Shown here: in pieces, positions 29,732 through 45,502 of the stretch
How the letters are laid out: each line of letters opens with the position of its first letter
Numbering within the stretch: position 1 is the stretch's first letter
Notes under the pieces: generated by a model
Told to the model about the DNA's origin: nothing
Database searches by the model: none
What the model saw: only the letters and a program-made list of their open reading frames with translations
NCBI GenBank assembly: GCA_050331735.1
Contig: JBHJGN010000016.1
Coordinates: 32,001-96,000 of the forward strand
DNA length: 64,000 bases
Origin: Cyanophyceae cyanobacterium
Lineage (GTDB): Bacteria > Cyanobacteriota > Cyanobacteriia > Cyanobacteriales > JBHJGN01
Direction of reading: 5' to 3'
Position numbers and translations under genes: made by a program

Positions 29732-32700
29732 ATGTCTAACAACTCATCTTTTCAAGATTATTTTGAAACTATTGATTCACTTTTTAGCACTAACTTAAGT
29801 GAGGATTTGGCCAATAGTGGCATGAGCGGGGAATTAGACAACGCGAATATTCAGCTCGCCTCATTTCAAGATTCCTCAACTGCTCAGCTTCTTCGTGAAA
29901 TGACTCCTGAAGCACCCAAGCCCAATCCTCTTCAGCAGTCAGAGAAGCGCCGCAATTTAGCATCGATCCAGCCCGAAGCGCTGCTCGACCGTTTCGCTGA
30001 TATTCGCCAACGGGCTCAACAGAATGACTTTCAAGAGCAGCTTAGCGCTAACAATGCCACACAGCGTTCTACAAACATACTAGCCGAAAAGATAGGCTGG
30101 CTCGGCAATGGTGGCCAGTCAACTATGGAGCACTTGCTCATCTGTAGCTGTGCCTATTGCCACAATCCTGTCTTTGAGACTCCAGAAGTTGAGCGATCGC
30201 CTCAGCCAAGTGGTTCTGCTGTTGAGGTGAGTCAGGCGCTAGCAGCACTACCGCTATTGAGCAGCAATCCGAATGCAGACGCTAAAATCTATCTCGACTT
30301 TAATGGACACGTCACCTCTAATACTTATTGGAACTCCAAGTACAAGGACGGTCAAGATTTTACAACTCCCGCGTATGATACTGATTCGGATACCAGTACC
30401 TTCAGTAGCTCTGAACTCGGCAGAATTGAAAAAATCTGGCAGCGAGTAGCCGAAGATTATGCTCCATTTAACGTTGACATTACCACCATCGACCCGGGGG
30501 ATTTTTCTGCCAAGTCAGGATTGCGGGTTGTCATTGGTGGTTCCTCAAAAAGTTGGTTCGGCAAAAGCGCCGGTGGCGTCGCCTTCATCAACTCGTGGCG
30601 GTGGAGTAGTGATACTCCTGTGTATGTTTTTGAAAATCAGTTGGGCAACGGCAACATTAAGTATACAGCCGAAGCTATTTCCCACGAAGTGGGCCACGCC
30701 CTGGGCTTGTATCATCAAAGTTCCTACAGTGCCAGCGGAGAGAAAACGTCTGAATATTATTCCGGTAGTGGTAAGGGAGAGACAGGTTGGGCTCCCATTA
30801 TGGGAAACAGCTACTCCAAAAATCTTACCACCTGGCATAACGGGACTAATAGCAAAGGCTCGGAGTCCTACCAGGATGAGCTCGCCATCATCGCTTCAGA
30901 TACGAACGGATTTGGCTATCGCGCTGACGACCACGGCAATACCAATGCCTCCGCAACACAACTAATCGGCAGTGAGACGGTTAGCGGTGCAGGCATTATC
31001 AGCACCAAAAACGATGTCGATGTATTTTCCTTCCAAACGGGGGCGGGAGACGTTAGTTTTGATATTGACGTGGCGACCGAAGGCGCCAACTTAGATATTG
31101 TTGCCGAGCTGTACCAAGGTAACAAGCGACTGCTGCGCAATAATCCAACGGACAAACTCGATGCGAGCTTGAGTACCTTTCTAGAGGCGGGGACATACTC
31201 CCTCCACATCAAAAGCAACGGCGATTACGGACGACTGGGCCAATACACGCTGCAAGGCAACATTAATCCTCTAAGCCAGCCTGACCCAATTCTCTCCGTC
31301 AGCGACGTCACCATCAGCGAAGGAAACAGTGACGAGGCTCAAGCACTAGTGACGGTAGAGTTGAATCAGCCATCCTCGAAACCAGTAGCTGTAAAGTACA
31401 CCACGGTAGATGGGAGTGCGATCGCCGCTGAAGATTACGTGGCTCAAAACGGCACTCTCACCTTCAATCCCGGTCAGACTCGCCAAACAATTGCCGTTGA
31501 CATCCTAGGCGATTTGCAAGCGGAGGACACCGAGACTTTCTCGCTTCAGTTTAGTCAAGCCACTAACGGACAGCTTTCCGATCCCGTCGCGACAGTTGCG
31601 ATTCTCGATGATGATGTAGCAGACTCCGTTACCGCAACCATCGCTGAAATTGGCCGAGTAGAGGCGATTAACCACCAGCAGCAAACCATTGTGCTTGACC
31701 AACGCTATACCAATCCGGTCGTTTTTGCCCAACCTCTGTCTCGCAATGGCGGTCAAACTGCCACAGTTCGCATCGACAATATTCAAAGCGATCGCTTTAC
31801 GGCCTCCATTCAAGAACCCGGTAATTTAGATAACTGGCATACCTCAGAAAGCTTTAGCTACCTGGTCGTCGAAGCCGGAACTTGGCAGCTAGCAGACGGC
31901 ACTTTTTTAGAAGCTGGCACCTTAAACACCAATGCCACCACCACAGATGCTTGGGCAACGGTTAACTGGGAGACAGACTTCGACGGAACTCCAGTAGTCC
32001 TGAGTAACCTACAGACTGACAATGATGCTGACTTCATGAACCTACGCCAGAAAAACATTGGGGCTGACGGCTTCCAAGTGGCGCTAGAAAAAGAAGAGGC
32101 GCTCAAAGGCTCTTCCTCTGCAACAGAAACGGTTGGCTGGCTAGCCATTTCCTCCGGGCAAGGCCAATTCAACGATCTCACCTACGAAGCAGGCTACACC
32201 GGAGATACTCTCACCCATCGGTGGCATACTTTAAACTTTGAGCAAAGCTTTGCAGAGGAACCAAAACTCTTAGCTTCTATCAGCAGCTTCGACGGTGGCG
32301 ATCCGGTCGGATTGCGCTACGAGAAACTGACCACGACAGGAGTCAAGCTCATGCTTGATGAAGATACTAGCCGAGACACAGAAACGGACCACACCAGCGA
32401 AAACGTGGGCTATTTAGCCATCGAAGGCAGCGGATTACTGACAGGCCAAGCGATTGAGCCTTTGACCGGAAAAGCGAGCACCGCTGAAGCGCTCGTTGGG
32501 GAAGCGGACATTCTCATGGGGTCCGCCAACTCAGATCGGTTTACTCTCCGTCCCAAGGAGCAAAGTGACGATCGTCCTTATCTCATTGTCGACTTCGATC
32601 CCAGTCAAGACATGATTCAACTATACGGCAGTGCAGACGCTTATACCCTACGGGCAGCTTCCGGTATGTCAGGCACCGCTATCTATCATACGCAGCAAGA

Positions 32701-32764
32701 CGAACTTGTTGGGGTAGTGGCAGGAGAAACTCTTGGACTTGATTCCTTGAGCTTTATCTCATAG
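29732..32764 (+). CDS. Large secreted zinc metalloprotease (metzincin) with PPC and Calx-beta domains and C-terminal repeats
   Basis: HEVGHALGLYH zinc motif, WAPIMG Met-turn, DDHGNT, DVDVFSF (PPC), Calx-beta TLTFNPGQT..DTETF, three HxxExxxYLxxE-type repeats. Confidence 0.85.
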   Translation: MSNNSSFQDYFETIDSLFSTNLSEDLANSGMSGELDNANIQLASFQDSSTAQLLREMTPEAPKPNPLQQSEKRRNLASIQPEALLDRFADIRQRAQQNDFQEQLSANNATQRSTNILAEKIGWLGNGGQSTMEHLLICSCAYCHNPVFETPEVERSPQPSGSAVEVSQALAALPLLSSNPNADAKIYLDFNGHVTSNTYWNSKYKDGQDFTTPAYDTDSDTSTFSSSELGRIEKIWQRVAEDYAPFNVDITTIDPGDFSAKSGLRVVIGGSSKSWFGKSAGGVAFINSWRWSSDTPVYVFENQLGNGNIKYTAEAISHEVGHALGLYHQSSYSASGEKTSEYYSGSGKGETGWAPIMGNSYSKNLTTWHNGTNSKGSESYQDELAIIASDTNGFGYRADDHGNTNASATQLIGSETVSGAGIISTKNDVDVFSFQTGAGDVSFDIDVATEGANLDIVAELYQGNKRLLRNNPTDKLDASLSTFLEAGTYSLHIKSNGDYGRLGQYTLQGNINPLSQPDPILSVSDVTISEGNSDEAQALVTVELNQPSSKPVAVKYTTVDGSAIAAEDYVAQNGTLTFNPGQTRQTIAVDILGDLQAEDTETFSLQFSQATNGQLSDPVATVAILDDDVADSVTATIAEIGRVEAINHQQQTIVLDQRYTNPVVFAQPLSRNGGQTATVRIDNIQSDRFTASIQEPGNLDNWHTSESFSYLVVEAGTWQLADGTFLEAGTLNTNATTTDAWATVNWETDFDGTPVVLSNLQTDNDADFMNLRQKNIGADGFQVALEKEEALKGSSSATETVGWLAISSGQGQFNDLTYEAGYTGDTLTHRWHTLNFEQSFAEEPKLLASISSFDGGDPVGLRYEKLTTTGVKLMLDEDTSRDTETDHTSENVGYLAIEGSGLLTGQAIEPLTGKASTAEALVGEADILMGSANSDRFTLRPKEQSDDRPYLIVDFDPSQDMIQLYGSADAYTLRAASGMSGTAIYHTQQDELVGVVAGETLGLDSLSFIS

Positions 32765-37136: not shown

Positions 37137-38120
37137 ATGCCTATTCAAACTTTGGAGTTACCGAGCGATCGCTACATTTGGGATTGCTGGTTCGCTCAGC
37201 ACAACTCGGAATATCATCTTTTTTACCTCCACGCTCCCAAAACCATCGCCAACCCCGAACTGCGCCACTGGAACGTCGCCATCGGTCATGCTTGTTCTAC
37301 AGACCTGCAAAAGTGGGAACTGCTGCCGGATGCCCTACACCCCGGTCCTGAGTTTGAAAAGTATACCTGGACGGGAAGCACCCTGTATCACCGTAACCAG
37401 TGGTATTTATTCTTCTCCTACTCCCGCAGTCAAGAGCGCGGTTTAATTCAGCGCGTTGGGGTAGCAACATCGACGGATGCCGTTACCTGGCACGAGCATC
37501 CAGAACCCATTATCGAGGCAGATCCGCGCTACTACGAACAGCTCGACCTCGACCTCTGGCACGACCAGTCGTGGCGCGACCCGTGGGTGTTTCAGCATCC
37601 CTCGGGAGACTTCTACGCCCTGATTACGGCCCGGGCGAATCACGGTCATCCCCAGACGCGAGGCGTGATTGCTCTAGCACGGGCGCTGACACCCGAGCTG
37701 TTGACGTGGGAGGTACTGCCTCCCATAGCGCAGCCGCAGCAGTATGGAGCGATGGAGTGTCCGCAACTGGTGTTCATTGATGGACGCTACTATCTCATCT
37801 TTTCCAGTCTTCCCTTTCATACTTCAGGAGAAATGGGAACTTACTACATGGTCGGAGACGCTCCTCTTGGACCCTTCTCAGAGCCTAGAAAACTGTGTGT
37901 CGATCCGATTGGTCGTTTCTATGCTGGTAAGCTCTTGCAGAGTACTGACGGAGAATGGTACTTTGTCGCCTGGCGCAATTTGGCTAGAGACTGCACCTTC
38001 TTAGGCGATTTGATTGCTCCCGTCCCGGTACGGATTGATCGAGCCGGGTATTTATCATTGCCAGAACTCCAAAACAGGCTGAGCGAACTGCAATCATTCT
38101 CTTGCCCAGTGACAACATAA
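37137..38120 (+). CDS. Glycoside hydrolase clan J (GH32/GH68-like) beta-fructofuranosidase
   Basis: WDCW (nucleophile Asp), WTGS, WRDPWV (RDP), MECPQL (acid/base Glu), FYAGK; no signal peptide. Confidence 0.8.
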   Translation: MPIQTLELPSDRYIWDCWFAQHNSEYHLFYLHAPKTIANPELRHWNVAIGHACSTDLQKWELLPDALHPGPEFEKYTWTGSTLYHRNQWYLFFSYSRSQERGLIQRVGVATSTDAVTWHEHPEPIIEADPRYYEQLDLDLWHDQSWRDPWVFQHPSGDFYALITARANHGHPQTRGVIALARALTPELLTWEVLPPIAQPQQYGAMECPQLVFIDGRYYLIFSSLPFHTSGEMGTYYMVGDAPLGPFSEPRKLCVDPIGRFYAGKLLQSTDGEWYFVAWRNLARDCTFLGDLIAPVPVRIDRAGYLSLPELQNRLSELQSFSCPVTT

Positions 38121-38239: not shown

Positions 38240-40123
38240 CTATTTATTGAGCAGTTGCGCCACCACATCGATCAGCTTGTCAATCTCAACAGGTTTAGAC
38301 AGATGCCGGTCGAATCCGGCTGCGAGCGATCGCTTCTCGTCGGTTTCGGAAGCAAAGGCCGTCAGCGAAAGTGCTGGCAGCTCTTTGGCAGAGGCCAAAG
38401 CCCGGACTTTTTTGATGAGTTCGTAGCCATCCATGCCTACCATAGCAACATCGCTAATCAACAGCTCTGGCTGAAACGGCTTAAGGGTCTCTAAAGCTTC
38501 TGCGCCCGATGTCACCCCCTTGACGATCGCTCCCTCCTGCCCTAGAGCAAAAACGAGCAGCTCGCAGGCATCTGGCTCATCATCGACAACCAAGATTCTC
38601 CTGCCCCGAAAATTGGTCGTCTTCTCTGACGCGGTCTGTTGATTCTGAGGCGGTTTGGCAGCGGCAATTGGCAGCATCACGGTAAAGGTGGCTCCCTGTC
38701 CTAGCCCCGGACTGTTTGCACTAACCCTTCCTCCATGCAGCTCCACCAAATGGCGCACAATTGCCAGTCCCAGTCCCAGTCCACCAGAATCTCTCGTTGA
38801 GCTGCTGTCTGCTTGACGGAAATAGTCAAAGACATGGGGTAAAAACTCAGGAGCAATGCCTTTTCCGGTATCGCTAACCTGAATTCGGACCTGGGAACCA
38901 ACCGTTGAGAGGCTAATGTCTACCTGACCACCATCGGGGGTAAACTTAACGGCATTGGAGAGTAAATTCCAGATCACCTGCTGGAGCCGCATCGGATCGC
39001 CATTCACTAAACCGACATTGGCATCGATATTGGTATTGAGATGAATCGATTTGGCTTTCGCCGCTAAATAGGTTGTTTCTAACGCCCCCGCAATGACGGT
39101 TGGTAAATCGACGATTTCCTCGGCCAGAGTCAGCTTACCTCGCACAATGCGAGAAATATCTAGCAAATCTTCGATGAGCTGCACCTGGAGGGTCGCGTTG
39201 CGCTCGATGGTTTCTAGCGCCGTCTCTGCTTGCGCCCGATCGAACTCACGTCGCCGCAGCAGTTGCGTCCAGCCCAGGATGAGGTTGAGCGGGGTGCGAA
39301 GTTCGTGGGAGAGGATGGCGAGAAACTCGTCTTTAGCGCGGTTGGCGGTTTGAGCCTGTTCGAGAAGCTGACTCCGTTCGTGTTCAGCCCGCTTGAGGTC
39401 GGTAATGTCCCTCAGCGAAACCAGATAGGCAGGATTTCCTTGCCACTGAATGTTGGCAACGCGCATTTGCGCGACGCGGTATTCTCCGGTTCTCGAGAGC
39501 AAATCGACTTCTAAAAAGTCGCTGCCAACGACCGGAAACCCAAACGGCTGTCCGAGGAGTTCGTCGGCGTGGCGAGACAGTAGCTCCAGGGCTGCTGCAT
39601 TGATAAACTGGACCTGGCGCTGAGCATCGACGACGATGATCCCGTCAGCATTTTCTGTAATAATGGTTTGGAGCTGGGCTTCACTGCTGCCAGTTGCGGG
39701 TCGAGCTAGCTGCTGGGTTTGGGCTGCCAAAGCTTTGTGAACGGCTAGCGGAAGCGACTGCTCAGCAATTAAATAATCAGTCGCTCCGGCCTGCATGTAT
39801 TCAACCGCCGCCGGAACGCTGGGACTGCCGTTAACAATAATGAAAGGAATGTCGATACCCTGCGCTTGCTTGAGCAGCAGCGCGGCTTTGACCGTTAACT
39901 GAGCCAGGGCAAAGTCGGCAATAATCAGATCAAAACCTTCACCAAGATGCACCCTGTAGTCGGCTTCCGTCGCTACGCAGCGCCAGCGAACCGTGTACCT
40001 CGCTTCCTCGAGCGTTGAGGCGATCGCCTCTGCCTGCTGACGGCAGTTATGCAAAATCAATACCTGAAGCTGAGGCTCAATTGGAGAGGCGGAGACAGCA
40101 GTAAGCCGAGGATTCTGAGTCAT
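38240..40123 (-). CDS. Hybrid histidine kinase: degenerate REC, PAS, HisKA, HATPase, REC
   Basis: FLAILSHELRTPL H-box, NLLSNAVKFT, DTGKGI, GLGLGLAI; C-terminal REC with VVDD, LISD, LTA, SKP. Confidence 0.92.
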   Translation of the reverse strand: MTQNPRLTAVSASPIEPQLQVLILHNCRQQAEAIASTLEEARYTVRWRCVATEADYRVHLGEGFDLIIADFALAQLTVKAALLLKQAQGIDIPFIIVNGSPSVPAAVEYMQAGATDYLIAEQSLPLAVHKALAAQTQQLARPATGSSEAQLQTIITENADGIIVVDAQRQVQFINAAALELLSRHADELLGQPFGFPVVGSDFLEVDLLSRTGEYRVAQMRVANIQWQGNPAYLVSLRDITDLKRAEHERSQLLEQAQTANRAKDEFLAILSHELRTPLNLILGWTQLLRRREFDRAQAETALETIERNATLQVQLIEDLLDISRIVRGKLTLAEEIVDLPTVIAGALETTYLAAKAKSIHLNTNIDANVGLVNGDPMRLQQVIWNLLSNAVKFTPDGGQVDISLSTVGSQVRIQVSDTGKGIAPEFLPHVFDYFRQADSSSTRDSGGLGLGLAIVRHLVELHGGRVSANSPGLGQGATFTVMLPIAAAKPPQNQQTASEKTTNFRGRRILVVDDEPDACELLVFALGQEGAIVKGVTSGAEALETLKPFQPELLISDVAMVGMDGYELIKKVRALASAKELPALSLTAFASETDEKRSLAAGFDRHLSKPVEIDKLIDVVAQLLNK

Positions 40124-40131
40124 GTCTTCAA

Positions 40132-41652
40132 CTATTCATTCTCTTCTAATAAGCTGCTTAAACGATCGATCTCGTTTTGACTGGTCGACGTCGGGTTTCC
40201 CGACAGAATACCGGAGACATTGCGGAACGGCTGCCCTAAGTGCATCCCTTGGTCGTCTATTGTATACTCGCGGATGCCTTTGTCATGAGCGGAACCGCGC
40301 ATTTTTAAAACGGTGAGCCCCCGACGGATTTCTCCGTAAATTTCGATATACCGCAGCAGAATAATCAAGTCAGTGCTGGTCGAAATCTTATTTTGAGTAA
40401 TCGACGCTCCCCCGGTTAAAGTAGCCGTGTTGCAGGTCAAAAACCCAGTAATGCCTCGCTCTTTGAGCAGCGCACTGAGGGTCAACAGAAATTCTCGAAA
40501 TCCCTGGATAGTCGAAGCATTTTCTAACGCCGAAATACTGTCAAGCGCCACTCGCTGCGGCTTAAATTCCTCAATCTCTTCTCTCATCCGCACAAAATGC
40601 GATTCTAAGCCCATCTCTTCTGGACTTCGACAAATGACTTTGAGGAGTCCTTCTTGCTCCATCTGCTCAAAGTTGACTCCCCAGTTGGCCGCATTTCTAA
40701 TCAACTGCTGGCGGTTCTCTTCAAACGCCAGCAGCAAACTCCGCTCGTTGCTGGTGATGCCCCCAACTAAAAACTCCGTGGCCATCAAGGTTTTTCCAGT
40801 TCCGGTGGCTCCTGATACCAGGACGACCGTTTCGCGGAAAAAGCCACCGCCGCATAGTTGGTCGAGTTCAGCATTACCGGACGTGATCCGATTCACTGAG
40901 GAAGTTTGGATCAATCCCTTCGCTGAAAACGGAATGACGACGATGCCTCGGTCGGGAAGAATGGTAAACGGAAATTCGCCTCCTTGGTGTTCTGTGCCTC
41001 GGTACTTGAGGATTTCTACCGTGCGACGGCGCCTCTCCTGAGCCAGTACGTGCCGCAGAATAATCACGTTGTCGGCGACAAACTCTTCCACACCATAGCT
41101 GCTGATTTGACCGTACTCGTCCGTACGTTCTGCTGTCAGCACGGCGGTAATGTCAAGCTCCCGCAGCGCCGCCGAAATTCTGAAGAGATCGCGGCGGACG
41201 CGACCCCGATCCGGAACGTAGCTGAGAATAGAGCTGATGGAGTCTAGAGAGATACGCTGAGCATCAACTTGGTTAATGGCGTATTGAATCCGAGCCAGTA
41301 AAGCACCCAAATCATAATCGCCGCTGATCAGCAGGTCGCTAAAGTCTTCAGCCGTGGCATCCACAATGGCCCACTTGCCTTCCTCTTCCCACTGTTCGAT
41401 ATTCCAGCCGAAGCCGCGGACGTTTTTGCGAACCATCGCTGGCGGTTCTTCAAACGTAACAAATACCCCGTTTTGACCCCGCTTAATGCCCTCTACTAAA
41501 AACTGACAGGCGAAAATCGTTTTCCCTGTCCCCGCCGTTCCGGTCACTAGACTGGTACGACCTTTTGGTAATCCTCCAAGAGAAATTAAATCGAAACCAG
41601 GAATTCCCGTTTGGACCTTTTTCAGCAGCTCTAATTCGTTGGGTGTGCTCAT
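40132..41652 (-). CDS. kaiC: KaiC homologue, KaiC3-like double RecA-fold ATPase/autokinase
   Basis: GGLPKGR, GTAGTGKT (CI) and GATGTGKT (CII), FEE pairs, VEEFVADNVIILR, ISTSTDLIILLRY with ST phosphosites, KMRGSAHDKGIREY. Confidence 0.93.
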   Translation of the reverse strand: MSTPNELELLKKVQTGIPGFDLISLGGLPKGRTSLVTGTAGTGKTIFACQFLVEGIKRGQNGVFVTFEEPPAMVRKNVRGFGWNIEQWEEEGKWAIVDATAEDFSDLLISGDYDLGALLARIQYAINQVDAQRISLDSISSILSYVPDRGRVRRDLFRISAALRELDITAVLTAERTDEYGQISSYGVEEFVADNVIILRHVLAQERRRRTVEILKYRGTEHQGGEFPFTILPDRGIVVIPFSAKGLIQTSSVNRITSGNAELDQLCGGGFFRETVVLVSGATGTGKTLMATEFLVGGITSNERSLLLAFEENRQQLIRNAANWGVNFEQMEQEGLLKVICRSPEEMGLESHFVRMREEIEEFKPQRVALDSISALENASTIQGFREFLLTLSALLKERGITGFLTCNTATLTGGASITQNKISTSTDLIILLRYIEIYGEIRRGLTVLKMRGSAHDKGIREYTIDDQGMHLGQPFRNVSGILSGNPTSTSQNEIDRLSSLLEENE

Positions 41653-41686
41653 CAAGATTAATTGCTTGGTATTTCTGCCCGTAGCC

Positions 41687-41983
41687 CTAGCTACCCTGGG
41701 CTTGCGACTTCGAGGGAATATTTAAGGCAAATAGGATAACTTCTGTATCCGACAAATCGCCAATAATGCGTTCGCAAGGGAGGGGCTGCTCTTTAACGAG
41801 AGTCGGTGTAATCAAGATTTTTTCCTCCTCCGCTACTTTAGGAGTTTTCAGGACATCGATAATGGTAATAGTGTGCTGTCCCGGTAGCTCTTGCTCGCAG
41901 AAACGATTCAGGTTAGCGATCGCCCGTTGCGATCGCAGCGTGTTTCCTGTAACGTACAGCTTAAGGAGATATTGTTCGGACAT
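41687..41983 (-). CDS. kaiB: KaiB homologue, KaiB3-like
   Basis: LKLYVTGNTLRSQRAIANL, IIDVL..P..AEEEKILITPTLVK, RIIGDLSD. Confidence 0.93.
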   Translation of the reverse strand: MSEQYLLKLYVTGNTLRSQRAIANLNRFCEQELPGQHTITIIDVLKTPKVAEEEKILITPTLVKEQPLPCERIIGDLSDTEVILFALNIPSKSQAQGS

Positions 41984-42029
41984 TAAAAATTTACGGCGCA
42001 GAGTCCTGCGTCATGGTTCCCAATCAGGA

Positions 42030-42902
42030 TCAAGACAAGTCATTATAGCTTTTCGCCAGATTAATTTTACTCAAACCAACGTAGTATCTTCGATAATAAG
42101 CTGTCAACTTGCCCATCAGCTCCAACAGCAAAAACCGCCCTTCTTCCGTGTAGGCTTGAGCTTTTTGGGGCTTAGCCGTCTGCGCCTTTTGTTTTAAAAC
42201 CTGCGTATGCAGCTCAATAATATCTCGGGGCGTTGCCTTGAGGTATCCCAACTGTTCGGCAAGAGCATCGAGCTGAGGAGAAATTTGGTACTCGACCTTA
42301 TAAATTTGCCGCTCCAGCGCCCGCTCTAGCAGTTCCTCATACCGCTGCCGTAATTCTTCAAACACGTCTGGCATTCGGCTATACAGTGGCTCTAACCCGA
42401 GCAGTTTACTATCTAAGCTTGCCGAGCCGGTCATAATCTGCTCGAGCAGCTCTAATTCCTGCTCCTGCCGCTGCCGCTGGGGTTGCTCGCGCGCGGCGAG
42501 TTGCCGACTTCGTTCGATTGCGGTGCGAATTGCATATACTAGTAAGTTAGCATCTAGCTTAGCTTTCGGCAGGTAGCCACAGGCTCCTAAATCAAGAGCT
42601 TTCACCGCTACCGTTTCATCTTCGAGGACCGATTGCACAATAATTGGCATTCCTGCCGCTACCTGCTGCACTTCTACTAATGTCCCCATTCCCCGGCTAT
42701 CTGGCAGCATAAGATCGAGGAGAACCACATCAAAGTTTCGCTGTTGCAGTTGTGCTCGCCCTGCTTCTAAAGTGTCAGCTATATCTAAACTAAACCCCTC
42801 TTTAAAAAGAGTCGAGCGAGTGTTGCTCAGAAACTGTTGAATTCTTTGGCTTTCTTCAACATCGTCTTCAATCAGGAGAACCTGGCAGCGATGATTTAAC
42901 AT
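42030..42902 (-). CDS. KaiA3-like chimera: receiver domain plus KaiA-like helical C-terminal domain
   Basis: REC with IEDD, LLDLMLPD, QS, YLPK. C-terminus PRDIIELH..EEGRFLLLELMGKLTAYYRRYY resembles the KaiA C-terminal helices. Directly upstream of kaiB and kaiC. Confidence 0.8.
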   Translation of the reverse strand: MLNHRCQVLLIEDDVEESQRIQQFLSNTRSTLFKEGFSLDIADTLEAGRAQLQQRNFDVVLLDLMLPDSRGMGTLVEVQQVAAGMPIIVQSVLEDETVAVKALDLGACGYLPKAKLDANLLVYAIRTAIERSRQLAAREQPQRQRQEQELELLEQIMTGSASLDSKLLGLEPLYSRMPDVFEELRQRYEELLERALERQIYKVEYQISPQLDALAEQLGYLKATPRDIIELHTQVLKQKAQTAKPQKAQAYTEEGRFLLLELMGKLTAYYRRYYVGLSKINLAKSYNDLS

Positions 42903-43084
42903 TGATCCCTAAGTACGTTCTTGCAGTTGTGAATAGTGCAGATCAGCATTAAGGACGTATAAGCAAATTTAGGTAAGCGTCGGGAGTTAAGCTGAGCTGC
43001 TGCCTCCTCTTAGAATTCTTAAAGATATTTTAAGCTCTGTCAAGAATCGCTAGGAATAAATCAAGAATTAACAAATTACTTTAT

Positions 43085-45502
43085 CTATTGATGGTGGTCC
43101 TCGGACTGTTTGAGCGGGAGGCTGAAGATGATGGTGGTTCCTTGTCCAGGAGCGCTCTGAGCAAGAATGTCTCCGCGATGACGAGCAATAATTTTGCGAC
43201 AGATTGCTAGACCTAAACCAGTGCCTTCGTACTGACTACTAGAATGCAGGCGATGGAAAGGCAAAAACACTTTTTGGTGGTATTGAGGATTAAAGCCAAT
43301 GCCGTTGTCTTCAATCGCAATGTGGCAGCGATCAGGGCTATGGAATTTACTGTTAGGGGAAGCGGGAAGCTGATAAATTTTGATCCGTGGAGCAACATGC
43401 GGCTGATGAAATTTCAAAGCATTGTTGAGCAGATTCTGAAACAGTTGACGCATTTGCAGCGCATCCGCTTCGAGGGTTGGTAGCTCATCGACTGCTACCT
43501 GTCCATCTGTCTTGGCGATTTCCGCTCCCAAATCGGAAACCACTTCTCGAACAATGGTGTTCAGATTCACGGTCGCAAAAGGCTGTACCTGAGTGGCAAC
43601 GCGAGAAAAAGTCAGCAAATCTTTGATGAGAATCTGCATCCGATGAGTCAGCCTCCCCATGCGTTCAACATAGTCGCGCCCGTCGAAATCTAGCACTTCG
43701 CCATATTCCTCGATGAAGATGTCGCTTAACATTTGATGCTTATATAGAGGAGCCAGCAAATCGTGAGACACAACGCTAGCAAATTCTTCTAAATCGCTGT
43801 TGCTGCGCTCCAGTTCGGCAACGAGATTCTCTGATTGAGATTCTACTCGCTTGCGCTGGCTAATATCCTGAATTTGAGAGACAAAATAGAGCGGTTGCGC
43901 CTCCGTATTTTGAACCAGGGAAACGTTTAGTAACACCCACACGAGATGCCCTTGTTTGTGGATGTAGCGTTTCTCCATCTGATAGGTGCGAATGTCTCCC
44001 GCAAGCATCTGCTGCACGTAGGCAAGATCGATATCGAGATCGTCAGGATGAGTGAGGTCTTGAAACGTTTTTGCCAGCAGCTCTTTCGTGTCATAGCCCA
44101 ATAGTTCGCATAACGAGCGATTCACTCGCAAGAAGCGTCCGTCGGGAGCCACCAGTGCTTCTCCGGTGGCGGCATCGTCGAAGGCGCGACGAAAGCGTTC
44201 TTCGCTCTGGCGCAGTTGCTCTTCGACCTGCTTCATTTTAGTAATCTCTCGTCCTTCGGCAATGAGCCAGTTAACGTCGGTCTCTCCCACCGGACGCAGA
44301 GAAAAATCAATAGTAATAATCTGCTGATCGGCTCCCTGAACGTCCACTTCGTAGCGCACAAAGTTTCCTTGAGCAGCAGCGGCGATCGCCTCTTGCAGTC
44401 GCTCCTGAGCCTGACGTGATATCCGCCACCAGTGAGCCTCCCAAAAGGGTTTACCCACCACATCTGAGCGCTGCATTCCCCCAAAGTCGAGAGCCGTTTG
44501 ATTGACTTCTAACAGCAGTCCCTGCGGAGTCAGCAGCCCGATAAACTGAAACGTTTGATTAAATATAGCGCGAAAGCGGCGTTCGCTCGCTGACAGGGCA
44601 CGGGTCATCTGCTGCTGCTGGCGGTCCAGCTCATTGAGTTTTCTAGCAACCCACCAGACAACCCACCCTAACAGCAATACCTCCACAATACTTCTGAGGG
44701 CAATGCCAAAATCTGCTCCATAGAAATTGTGGCGCAATCCCAACAGCACTAGCCAGCCGACAATCACTGGCATCCCTAAAACAATGGGGAGAAAGGTCCG
44801 GGCCATAATGCCTCCGGCTGCGTCGGTGGTGATCACTCTCATCCATCCTCGCTCCGGGTAGGTTCCTAACAGCGCCAGAGCGAGCAACACAAAATTGATT
44901 CCAGTAGGAATGGCCATCCCGGTGTAGGAATCGATACCGTAGAGGATCGTGAGGTCGTAAGCATGACCGACGAGACCCAAGAACGCAATCAGAAAAACGA
45001 GGTAAGCTAAACTCTGAGCAGCCCAGTAGCGCTGTCGGGTCAGCAACACGACTGCTGCACTCCACAAGAGAAAGTTGCTCGCCGTATTCGGAGCCATCTG
45101 ACCCCGTGCTGTCTTGGCGATCGCCTCAGAAGAGCGAAAGAGAACTTCCTCGATGCCTAGATTGATATTTAAGGTGTACTGAATCAGGGTCAGCAGGCTC
45201 AAGAACACCACGCCAGCAGGAAGTGCGTAAACGAGCGGAAATAAATGGCGGTGTCTGCTGCTCTGGTGACGGACTTGGTGCTGATACCTCCCCAAAAACA
45301 AGCTGCTGCTGATAAAACTGAAGGCGGTACTGACGGCCATCGTTACCCGTTCCGGCAGAAAGCTTGTTAAAACGGCCACATCAAAGAGCCAGCCCAACAG
45401 CACCAAGCAGCTTATCCCCAATACCACAAAACAGGCCGCGTGAGCCGCAAACATCAGCTTGCTGTTCAAGGAATCGACGGTTGACGGGGTTTGCTTAGAC
45501 AT
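43085..45502 (-). CDS. Multi-TM sensor histidine kinase with two PAS/PAC domains
   Basis: About 7 hydrophobic helices, two SE(E/R)RFR-PAS blocks, FASVVSHDL H-box, QLFQNLLNNALKF, DNGIG, GTGLGLAIC. Confidence 0.92.
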   Translation of the reverse strand: MSKQTPSTVDSLNSKLMFAAHAACFVVLGISCLVLLGWLFDVAVLTSFLPERVTMAVSTAFSFISSSLFLGRYQHQVRHQSSRHRHLFPLVYALPAGVVFLSLLTLIQYTLNINLGIEEVLFRSSEAIAKTARGQMAPNTASNFLLWSAAVVLLTRQRYWAAQSLAYLVFLIAFLGLVGHAYDLTILYGIDSYTGMAIPTGINFVLLALALLGTYPERGWMRVITTDAAGGIMARTFLPIVLGMPVIVGWLVLLGLRHNFYGADFGIALRSIVEVLLLGWVVWWVARKLNELDRQQQQMTRALSASERRFRAIFNQTFQFIGLLTPQGLLLEVNQTALDFGGMQRSDVVGKPFWEAHWWRISRQAQERLQEAIAAAAQGNFVRYEVDVQGADQQIITIDFSLRPVGETDVNWLIAEGREITKMKQVEEQLRQSEERFRRAFDDAATGEALVAPDGRFLRVNRSLCELLGYDTKELLAKTFQDLTHPDDLDIDLAYVQQMLAGDIRTYQMEKRYIHKQGHLVWVLLNVSLVQNTEAQPLYFVSQIQDISQRKRVESQSENLVAELERSNSDLEEFASVVSHDLLAPLYKHQMLSDIFIEEYGEVLDFDGRDYVERMGRLTHRMQILIKDLLTFSRVATQVQPFATVNLNTIVREVVSDLGAEIAKTDGQVAVDELPTLEADALQMRQLFQNLLNNALKFHQPHVAPRIKIYQLPASPNSKFHSPDRCHIAIEDNGIGFNPQYHQKVFLPFHRLHSSSQYEGTGLGLAICRKIIARHRGDILAQSAPGQGTTIIFSLPLKQSEDHHQ

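Follow-up and report, generated by a model that had tools for sequence, protein, structure and literature searches.

Gene content of the locus

A 64,000-nt stretch of contig JBHJGN010000016.1 from a Cyanophyceae cyanobacterium (the window, whose coordinates are used throughout; its own genome is labelled G000) contains a KaiA3-KaiB3-KaiC3 module flanked by two histidine kinases, HK1 upstream and HK2 downstream. Five open reading frames (ORFs), all on the minus strand, lie in the order HK1, kaiA3, kaiB3, kaiC3, HK2, with intergenic gaps of 182, 46, 31, and 8 bp. An earlier note on this DNA had claimed five co-oriented genes in this order, and all five were found. Of the gaps that it gave (46, 34, and 8 bp), the first and last stand, whereas the kaiB3-kaiC3 gap depends on the start codon of KaiC, being 31 bp from the TTG and 34 bp from the ATG that comes one codon later. 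The features are as follows, all on the minus strand.

43085..45502, minus: HK1, 805 amino acids (aa), membrane sensor kinase, candidate KaiA3 input kinase (Pfam)
43015..43043, minus: sigma70-like site TTGACA-17-AAGAAT, 10/12, in the HK1-kaiA3 gap (consensus match alone)
42030..42902, minus: kaiA3, 290 aa, intact receiver and KaiA-like helical bundle (Pfam, alignment)
42033..42410, minus: KaiA-like C-terminal domain, aa 165-290 (profile search, model, fold search)
41687..41983, minus: kaiB3, 98 aa (Pfam, identity, synteny)
40132..41655, minus: kaiC3, 507 aa, fast-evolving copy with S425/T426 kept and N379 at the R385 position
38240..40123, minus: HK2, 627 aa, soluble hybrid kinase, candidate reader of the KaiB3-KaiC3 state (Pfam)
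39719..40072, minus: N-terminal pseudo-receiver of HK2, about aa 18-135
39374..39679, minus: PAS domain of HK2, KidA PAS-C type, aa 149-250

Identity of the Kai core

The receiver of the KaiA-like protein (PF00072, E 2e-16) keeps E12, D13, D63, S91, and K113, in agreement with the earlier note, which had listed its phosphorylation residues as conserved. Over 284 aa, the protein shares 37% identity (E 2e-62) with P0121, a protein of Synechocystis PCC 6803 named as NarL-subfamily that was taken as Sll0485 because it has the same protein start as in Data S1 of PMC11372060. It is 54% identical to P0031, a Stanieria protein listed as a KaiA3 orthologue in the same data set, and the KaiA3 domain occurs once in this genome. 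A 48-row profile of the C-terminal domain returned KaiA as the top three PDB matches (E 0.003-0.011), whereas KaiA was not among the PDB matches when the domain was searched as a single sequence. The model of this domain (predicted local distance difference test score, 87) retrieved KaiA at Foldseek ranks 1-7 with weak E values. A VIA fold search placed KaiA at ranks 1-3 (Z 11.1-11.5, root-mean-square deviation 2.4-3.5 over 90-107 residues; next Z 9.5), Z values below 13 not being decisive by themselves for helical bundles. Foldseek with the full-length KaiA3 model returned receiver domains alone and no KaiA. The suggestion of a KaiA-like C-terminus is thus borne out by the profile, model, and fold searches, in each of which KaiA came out on top. 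An RsbU-type phosphatase activator was considered and rejected, as the RsbU_N match was sub-threshold (E 0.009) and is explained by the common fold.

The window KaiC is 63% identical to Slr1942 (KaiC3), 50% to KaiC1, and 37% to KaiC2, and clusters in a quick tree with Slr1942, apart from KaiC1. All the KaiC motifs named in the earlier note are present, including both P-loops (39-46 and 282-289), the EE pairs (69/70 and 312/313), T420/S425/T426, which correspond to T426/S431/T432, and GILSGNP at 482. The window KaiB is of the KaiB3 type by identity and synteny (56% to the KaiB beside Sll0485, 48% to its own KaiB1), and the gene order kaiA3-kaiB3-kaiC3 is the published one. The locus departs from canonical KaiA1B1C1 in its intact receiver, its KaiC of the KaiC3 clade, and N379 at the R385 position. 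Because of the KaiA3 orthology, the KaiA fold matches, and the grouping of KaiC with Slr1942, the core is assigned by sequence comparison to the published KaiA3-KaiB3-KaiC3 system, as the earlier note had proposed.

The genome contains two other kai clusters. A canonical kaiA1-kaiB1-kaiC1 cluster is located on contig C56 (37314-40226). Contig C19 (L124:7921-12128) carries a third kaiB-kaiC pair without kaiA, and its KaiC is 51% identical to the window KaiC and has a long branch. Just 13 bp past this kaiC lies a gene for a hybrid kinase whose receiver looks intact and which also has a KidA PAS-C-type domain. The C19 cluster was rejected as the true KaiC3 system of the genome, as it lacks kaiA3 and its long branch is of unsure placement.

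Distribution of KaiA3 loci

KaiA3 loci were collected from 55 named genome contigs, from 27 of the 29 other matches in a 401-genome sample of the phylum, and from 4 further matches. After removal of 5 duplicates and of 7 loci without a whole receiver-KaiA protein (L046, L052-L054, L074, L075, and L125), the KaiA3 tree comprised 75 rows. This and all other trees are quick trees, with support from the Shimodaira-Hasegawa-like approximate likelihood ratio test (SH-aLRT) alone. Clade K (30 rows, support 99) contains the window together with Coleofasciculus, Pleurocapsa, Waterburya, Rivularia, and Calothrix, and its Stanieria and Rivularia members are listed in Data S1 (PMC11372060). Of the remaining rows, 30 form clade S, which includes Sll0485, six form clade R, six make up a Leptolyngbyaceae-type clade, and three stand singly on long branches. 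The KaiA3 domain is patchily distributed, being matched in 30 of the 401 genomes, and no match was found on plasmids.

Named records of Coleofasciculus, Pleurocapsa, Rivularia, and Calothrix show this gene order, and the same five genes are present in Calothrix parasitica NIES-267 (L026). Synteny of both kinases is therefore conserved within one KaiA3 subclade, clade K (HK1 in 22/25 loci, HK2 in 26/27). For more distant comparison, the best 80 of 288 metagenome KaiA3 loci were reduced to 37 groups at 75% identity; 30 of these, judged by identity, are not close to cyanobacterial KaiA3.

Several KaiA3-type loci deviate from this pattern. Three genomes from a different class of the phylum encode KaiA3-type proteins (L074:9274-11028, L125:9325-10215, and L126:8799-9755) with no kaiB or kaiC nearby, and two of these proteins sit among receivers and a kinase. 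Two further loci (L151 and L169) contain tandem kaiA3-kaiB-kaiC units, in which the first KaiC is divergent (47-48%).

The upstream kinase and the KaiA3 receiver

HK1 is composed of six strongly hydrophobic segments, two PAS domains, HisKA (H580), and HATPase, and all of its kinase boxes are present. Its membrane domain (44600-45502), for which no Pfam family was found, is a widespread unnamed sensor domain that occurs on kinases and on GGDEF and EAL proteins. In the Atlas it resembles unnamed clusters (0.92-0.96), whereas MASE3-like clusters reached at most 0.82 and provide a lead only.

Among assessable loci, a same-strand kinase within 2.5 kb upstream of kaiA3 was present in 22/25 in clade K, compared with 0/27 in clade S, 0/5 in clade R, and 0/5 in the Leptolyngbyaceae-type clade. 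The clade-K upstream kinases form one clade (20 distinct rows, SH-aLRT 99) apart from five paralogues in the window's own genome, and their subgroups resemble those of KaiA3 and KaiC. Their H-box reads HDL[LIM][SA]PL[HYR][KR], as opposed to the usual HDL[QR]EPLR, and the H-box region of histidine kinases is known to hold specificity residues. The sensors vary, with a membrane-PAS arrangement in the window, Coleofasciculus, and Pleurocapsa, and PAS alone in Rivularia and Calothrix. Of the distant metagenome groups, 15 were assessable on the upstream side, and 11 of them also have a kinase of the HK1 class no more than three genes away.

All five receiver residues are intact in every clade-K KaiA3 (30/30) and in the Leptolyngbyaceae-type clade (6/6), compared with 13/30 in clade S and 0/6 in clade R, so that the kinase-free clades S and R together retain 13 of 36. 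By parsimony, no receiver loss occurred on 5.6 branch units in clade K, versus four on 4.5 (6.1 with Leptolyngbyaceae; p ~0.04-0.07). The association between receiver conservation and kinase presence is suggestive only.

Two genomes that are 99% complete (G225 and G097) contain kaiB-kaiC-HK2 but lack both kaiA3 and HK1 at the locus, and their KaiC proteins nest at two separate places within clade K. A KaiA3 profile that finds the domain in other genomes matched nothing in these two. No HK1-type kinase was found in them either, the best matches being at 41%, plus a 50% protein with an ordinary H-box. Because kaiA3 and HK1 are jointly missing, the presence of HK1 goes with that of KaiA3, and the presence of HK2 with that of KaiB3C3, in these two cases. 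The earlier note had proposed that the upstream membrane kinase phosphorylates KaiA3, and the comparative evidence points to HK1 as the most likely KaiA3 kinase and a good candidate for the missing input of this clock.

The KaiA3 of Synechocystis (P0121, L072:9304-10203) keeps the receiver Asp and has Leu in place of the invariant Lys. This Lys is missing from all 15 rows of the subclade to which the protein belongs, and some of these also lack the Asp. Synechocystis KaiA3 may not be phosphorylated in the normal manner.

The downstream kinase and its KidA PAS-C-type domain

HK2 contains REC, PAS, HisKA (H273), HATPase, and a second REC (D558), with all kinase boxes present (Pfam). The earlier note overlooked that its N-terminal receiver is degenerate (H25/N26, D70, N98, and A120). 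None of 29 orthologues has the canonical residue set in this receiver, whereas the C-terminal receiver looks intact in the 23 orthologues that were aligned. HK2 follows kaiC3 at 26 of the 27 assessable clade-K loci; a kinase in the same downstream range was found in 1/28 clade-S and 0/5 clade-R loci. A different kinase class lies downstream of kaiC3 in the Leptolyngbyaceae-type clade (4/4), and two clade-S loci without an adjacent kaiC (L068 and L070) have a dissimilar kinase right behind kaiB. A short PAS-kinase with an odd H-box (HDLWN) was noted behind kaiC3 at the Leptolyngbyaceae-type loci L042, L044, L047, L048, and L053, followed at several of these by a receiver-kinase.

The PAS domain of HK2 belongs to a distinct subtype. 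Two copies in the window's own genome match it strongly (155 and 145 bits; the next match, 30), each directly behind a kaiC, compared with 67 generic PAS matches. By hand count, the gene after kaiC carries it in 13 of 15 assessable distant metagenome groups, where that gene is an output kinase in nine, a GGDEF protein in three, and cut in one; L151 was left out because its kaiC is followed by a second kaiA3 and its last kaiC is cut. The five-part layout thus extends far beyond the cyanobacteria and is probably older than clade K. Exclusivity of the subtype to kai operons was rejected, as at least 81 matches occur in 54 of the 401 genomes, a lower bound since 12 candidates were scored per genome.

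The subtype connects HK2 with KidA. The reference used was P0342, one of the matches away from kai genes, a 914-aa protein of S. elongatus PCC 11801 with four PAS domains and GGDEF-EAL, which adjoins a heme-oxygenase-like gene; it was taken as the KidA orthologue from its architecture, the adjacent heme oxygenase, and matching domain boundaries. A profile of the kaiC-adjacent PAS domains matched P0342 at residues 253-361 (80.9 bits), and PAS-C of KidA is placed at 270-350 (PMC9478674). In the reverse direction, PAS-C of P0342 matched only HK2 and the C19 kinase in the window's own genome (41.2 and 38.5 bits; next 13.0). Searches of the same genome with the PAS-A and PAS-B domains of P0342 gave no match. 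According to PMC9478674, the PAS-ABC fragment of KidA binds fold-switched KaiB directly, and constructs without PAS-A or PAS-C lose the period effect. The paper does not demonstrate PAS-C as the KaiB contact, and its discussion raises the possibility that PAS genes beside kai genes bind Kai proteins. HK2 is thus a candidate reader of the KaiB3-KaiC3 state.

KidA PAS-C-type domains were also observed in three large signalling proteins of Synechocystis type (P0316 at L212:5149-8883, P0331 at L213:3518-7633, and L214:5133-8684). These proteins, one of which is Slr0359, are encoded away from kai genes and are candidate Kai readers in trans.

Proposed mechanism

The gene anatomy, orthology, synteny, residue patterns, and domain homology described above are consistent with a KaiA3-KaiB3-KaiC3 module that is wired into two-component signalling at both ends, a reading for which we consider the chances evenly balanced. 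HK1 would sense a membrane or periplasmic cue and probably transfers phosphate from H580 to D63 of KaiA3. The state of the KaiA3 receiver would then set the extent to which the KaiA-like domain stimulates KaiC3 autophosphorylation at S425/T426; stimulation of KaiC3 by KaiA3 was reported for the Synechocystis orthologues (PMC11372060), and control by the receiver is slightly favoured. KaiB3 would bind KaiC3 and promote its dephosphorylation, as shown for orthologues. HK2 might or might not, in about equal measure, read the KaiB3-KaiC3 state through its KidA PAS-C-type domain, which would tune its autokinase; the contact would most likely be fold-switched KaiB3, possibly with help from the pseudo-receiver. 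Phosphate would pass from H273 to D558 of HK2 and then to an HPt protein or regulator encoded elsewhere. The description of the module as self-contained in the earlier note is not supported, since HK2 is a hybrid kinase and no HPt protein or output regulator or effector is encoded among the locus genes, the next gene being a convergent GH32 hydrolase.

A more general and more tentative reading, possible rather than probable, is that KaiA3-KaiB3-KaiC3 is basically a signal-processing cassette of two-component networks. A kinase would act on a KaiA-type domain, KaiC3 would store the signal or slow its passage, and the PAS-C subtype would serve as a portable adaptor for fold-switched KaiB on kinases and diguanylate cyclases. 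If so, this locus would be a complete cyanobacterial instance in which both the input kinase and the output that the second clock has lacked so far can be named, and other KidA-type PAS proteins, Slr0359 among them, would be expected to read Kai systems in trans.

Several observations weigh against wiring at both ends. Since the loci flanked by kinases belong to one clade, the correlation on the input side amounts to little more than a single contrast. Intact receivers are also found in the 13 kinase-free KaiA3 proteins and the six of Leptolyngbyaceae type, and HK1 is absent from 3 of 25 clade-K loci (L002, L016, and L027) that retain an intact receiver. Distant loci often encode a small single-domain receiver between the kinase and kaiA3, and this protein may be what the kinase actually phosphorylates. 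The distance between HK1 and kaiA3 is 83-2086 bp in relatives; because of this, the 182-bp gap here, and the sigma70-like site in the gap, co-transcription of HK1 with the kai genes is doubtful. On the output side, the PAS subtype is common away from kai genes, with a kaiC within 1.5 kb at only 3 of the 30 best loci, including that of the window, and KidA also needs PAS-A, for which this genome has no match. Slr0359 and two names presumed for the other two Synechocystis proteins with this PAS type are not listed in the KaiC3 pull-down table of PMC11372060; that table is shallow (KaiA3 itself has 2 peptides), and its bait was KaiC3, not fold-switched KaiB. Furthermore, several clade-K loci are broken.

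A conserved internal promoter 5' of kaiA3 was considered and rejected, as the site is not kept in 29 relatives; eight promoter-like sites occur in the region, against 6.2 +/- 2.6 expected by chance.

Clock or switch, and alternative explanations

The first alternative is that the module is a self-sustained second clock of about 24 h, with HK1 as its entraining input and HK2 as its reader. In its favour, the window KaiC retains every catalytic and phosphosite residue, but other positions, overlooked by the earlier note, point elsewhere. In the window KaiC, R385 is replaced by N379 (assigned by alignment) and H429 by K423. Arg occupies the R385 position in all 39 other KaiC3-type rows, compared with only 5 of the 25 clade-K rows (13/25 have K), while H429 is changed in 10/25 and I433 in 25/25 clade-K rows. 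The window protein deviates at 25 columns of 90% or higher conservation, a number close to that of the two copies without KaiA3 (26 and 24), and is among the three most deviant of 63 rows. In published accounts, R385 restrains the catalytic base until KaiA acts, and the R385A change reduces the effect of KaiA from 18-fold to about 5-fold; on the other hand, S. elongatus with R385A is still rhythmic, at 36-48 h. Together with the absence of an effector from the locus, these features make a 24-h clock unlikely. A signal-gated slow switch or a damped timer is more likely than a stand-alone 24-h clock, because the R385 brake has been lost from most of the subclade and a canonical kaiA1B1C1 cluster is present elsewhere in the genome.

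The distribution of the KaiA3-type domain points in the same direction. The domain was found in 1,709 clusters at 50% identity (E 0.001), and all 46 longer clusters scanned from the best 150 carry REC, PAS, GAF, or MEDS domains; receivers are intact in 51 of 69 fully aligned cluster proteins. By sequence, this is the pattern of a signalling output domain, and a gated switch or damped timer is therefore favoured. Ten of the best 150 clusters (P0167-P0315) were also observed to carry a KidA PAS-C-type domain in the same chain.

In the second alternative, signalling by the kinases bypasses the Kai core or runs in a different sequence. HK2 could be a kinase or phosphatase of KaiA3 (feedback), or HK1 could feed HK2 or a receiver in trans, with the shared operon explained by co-regulation or descent. 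The Leptolyngbyaceae-type loci, with their intact receivers (6/6), downstream kinase (4/4), and no upstream kinase (0/5), fit this arrangement, as do the wide occurrence of the PAS type outside kai operons and the small receivers that often adjoin the upstream kinase in distant loci. Still, the N-terminal receiver of HK2, noncanonical in all 29 orthologues, would be a poor substrate for HK1; HK2 has its own intact receiver in cis; and HK2 stays with kaiB3C3 where kaiA3 is missing, whereas HK1 does not. Signalling around the core is thus distinctly unlikely.

The weakest alternative, a decaying accessory module with inherited order and a window copy of little or no present function, would account for the long KaiC branch (0.66, against a median of 0.086), the patchy distribution of KaiA3, and the deletions, insertions, or frameshifts at L002, L013, L015, L016, L018, L019, L020, L022, L027, and L046, some of which may be assembly errors, but is very unlikely given five whole ORFs in the window, intact catalytic motifs throughout the kinases, the KaiA3 receiver, and KaiC, and an order that is kept in the named relatives.

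The module is partly lost or broken at these ten loci and at L075, with HK1 missing, internal deletions in kaiC or HK2, an insertion of ~1 kb in kaiC, or frameshifts. Recent horizontal arrival of the locus was rejected, as its GC content (0.47-0.53 at 38-46 kb) is unremarkable and similar to that of the remaining window.

Two neighbouring genes were noted. A GH32 glycoside hydrolase gene (37137-38120) converges on HK2 at a distance of 119 bp, and a 1010-aa ORF (29732-32764) contains, as judged by eye, an HExxH zinc-protease-like motif and repeated extracellular-type domains.

Comparison with known systems

The closest known system is the KaiA3-KaiB3-KaiC3 oscillator of Synechocystis sp. PCC 6803 (Sll0485 and Slr1942; Koebler et al., 2024, PMC11372060), with KaiA3 at 37%, KaiC3 at 63%, and KaiB at 56% identity. 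Both have the receiver-KaiA chimera, the gene order, and the S/T sites. The locus differs in its two conserved flanking kinases, its intact receiver, and a KaiC3 without the R385 and H429 equivalents. No kinase flanks kaiA3 or kaiC3 in Synechocystis, and the genome holding Sll0485 gave no HK1-type kinase match above 39%. Since, in addition, Sll0485 lacks the receiver Lys, Synechocystis is a poor place to seek Kai3 partners, whereas in clade K the candidates can be named down to the proteins, the residues (H580 of HK1 and D63 of KaiA3), and the domain (the KidA PAS-C type).

PMC11372060 states that the input kinase and output path of KaiA3B3C3 are unknown, which a 2026 review repeats; this agrees with the earlier note, which knew of no characterised cognate kinase for KaiA3. 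Kinases beside kai clusters are already in print (PMC3164672, PMC10931921, and PMC9478674). As at this locus, a PAS kinase or GGDEF/EAL gene lies beside kaiC or kaiB in kaiBC clusters outside the cyanobacteria (De Luca et al., 2011, PMC3164672), and such a gene lies beside the kaiA3-kaiB-kaiC cluster of Rhodospirillum rubrum (Rru_A3293-A3296; PMC10931921). The relevant passages of these two papers describe adjacency alone, without separating input from output kinases or naming the PAS subtype, and De Luca et al. except cyanobacteria from the kinase adjacency. Searches of titles and abstract openings in the open-access literature found no paper that names a KaiA3 kinase or ties the KidA PAS-C subtype to kaiC3 operons, although the synteny in Fig. 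1b of PMC11372060 may already show the kinases. Further literature on the subject includes PMC13421787, PMC8113500, PMC2777353, and bioRxiv 10.1101/2024.03.21.584037. What appears to be new here is the comparative evidence on Kai3 partner kinases, with a candidate input and a candidate output. If confirmed, HK1 and KaiA3 would provide, to our knowledge, the first case of His-Asp phosphorylation directly gating a KaiA protein, and KidA, so far a single case, would come to exemplify a general read-out module for Kai systems.

KidA (Synpcc7942_1859, PMC9478674) resembles HK2 in having a PAS domain of the PAS-C subtype, which lies within its fragment that binds fold-switched KaiB. The two differ in that KidA contains four PAS domains together with GGDEF-EAL and works on the canonical clock, whereas HK2, encoded in the kaiC3 operon, has a kinase output and a single PAS domain of this subtype, preceded by a pseudo-receiver. 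CikA, which interacts with fold-switched KaiB (PMC9478674), and SasA resemble HK2 as histidine kinases that read the Kai state. Pfam and NCBIfam scans found no KaiB or GAF domain in HK1 or HK2. SasA has an N-terminal KaiB-like domain, and CikA has a GAF domain and a C-terminal pseudo-receiver that it uses for fold-switched KaiB. HK2 differs from both in lacking a KaiB-like or GAF domain, in the N-terminal position of its pseudo-receiver, and in its intact C-terminal receiver.

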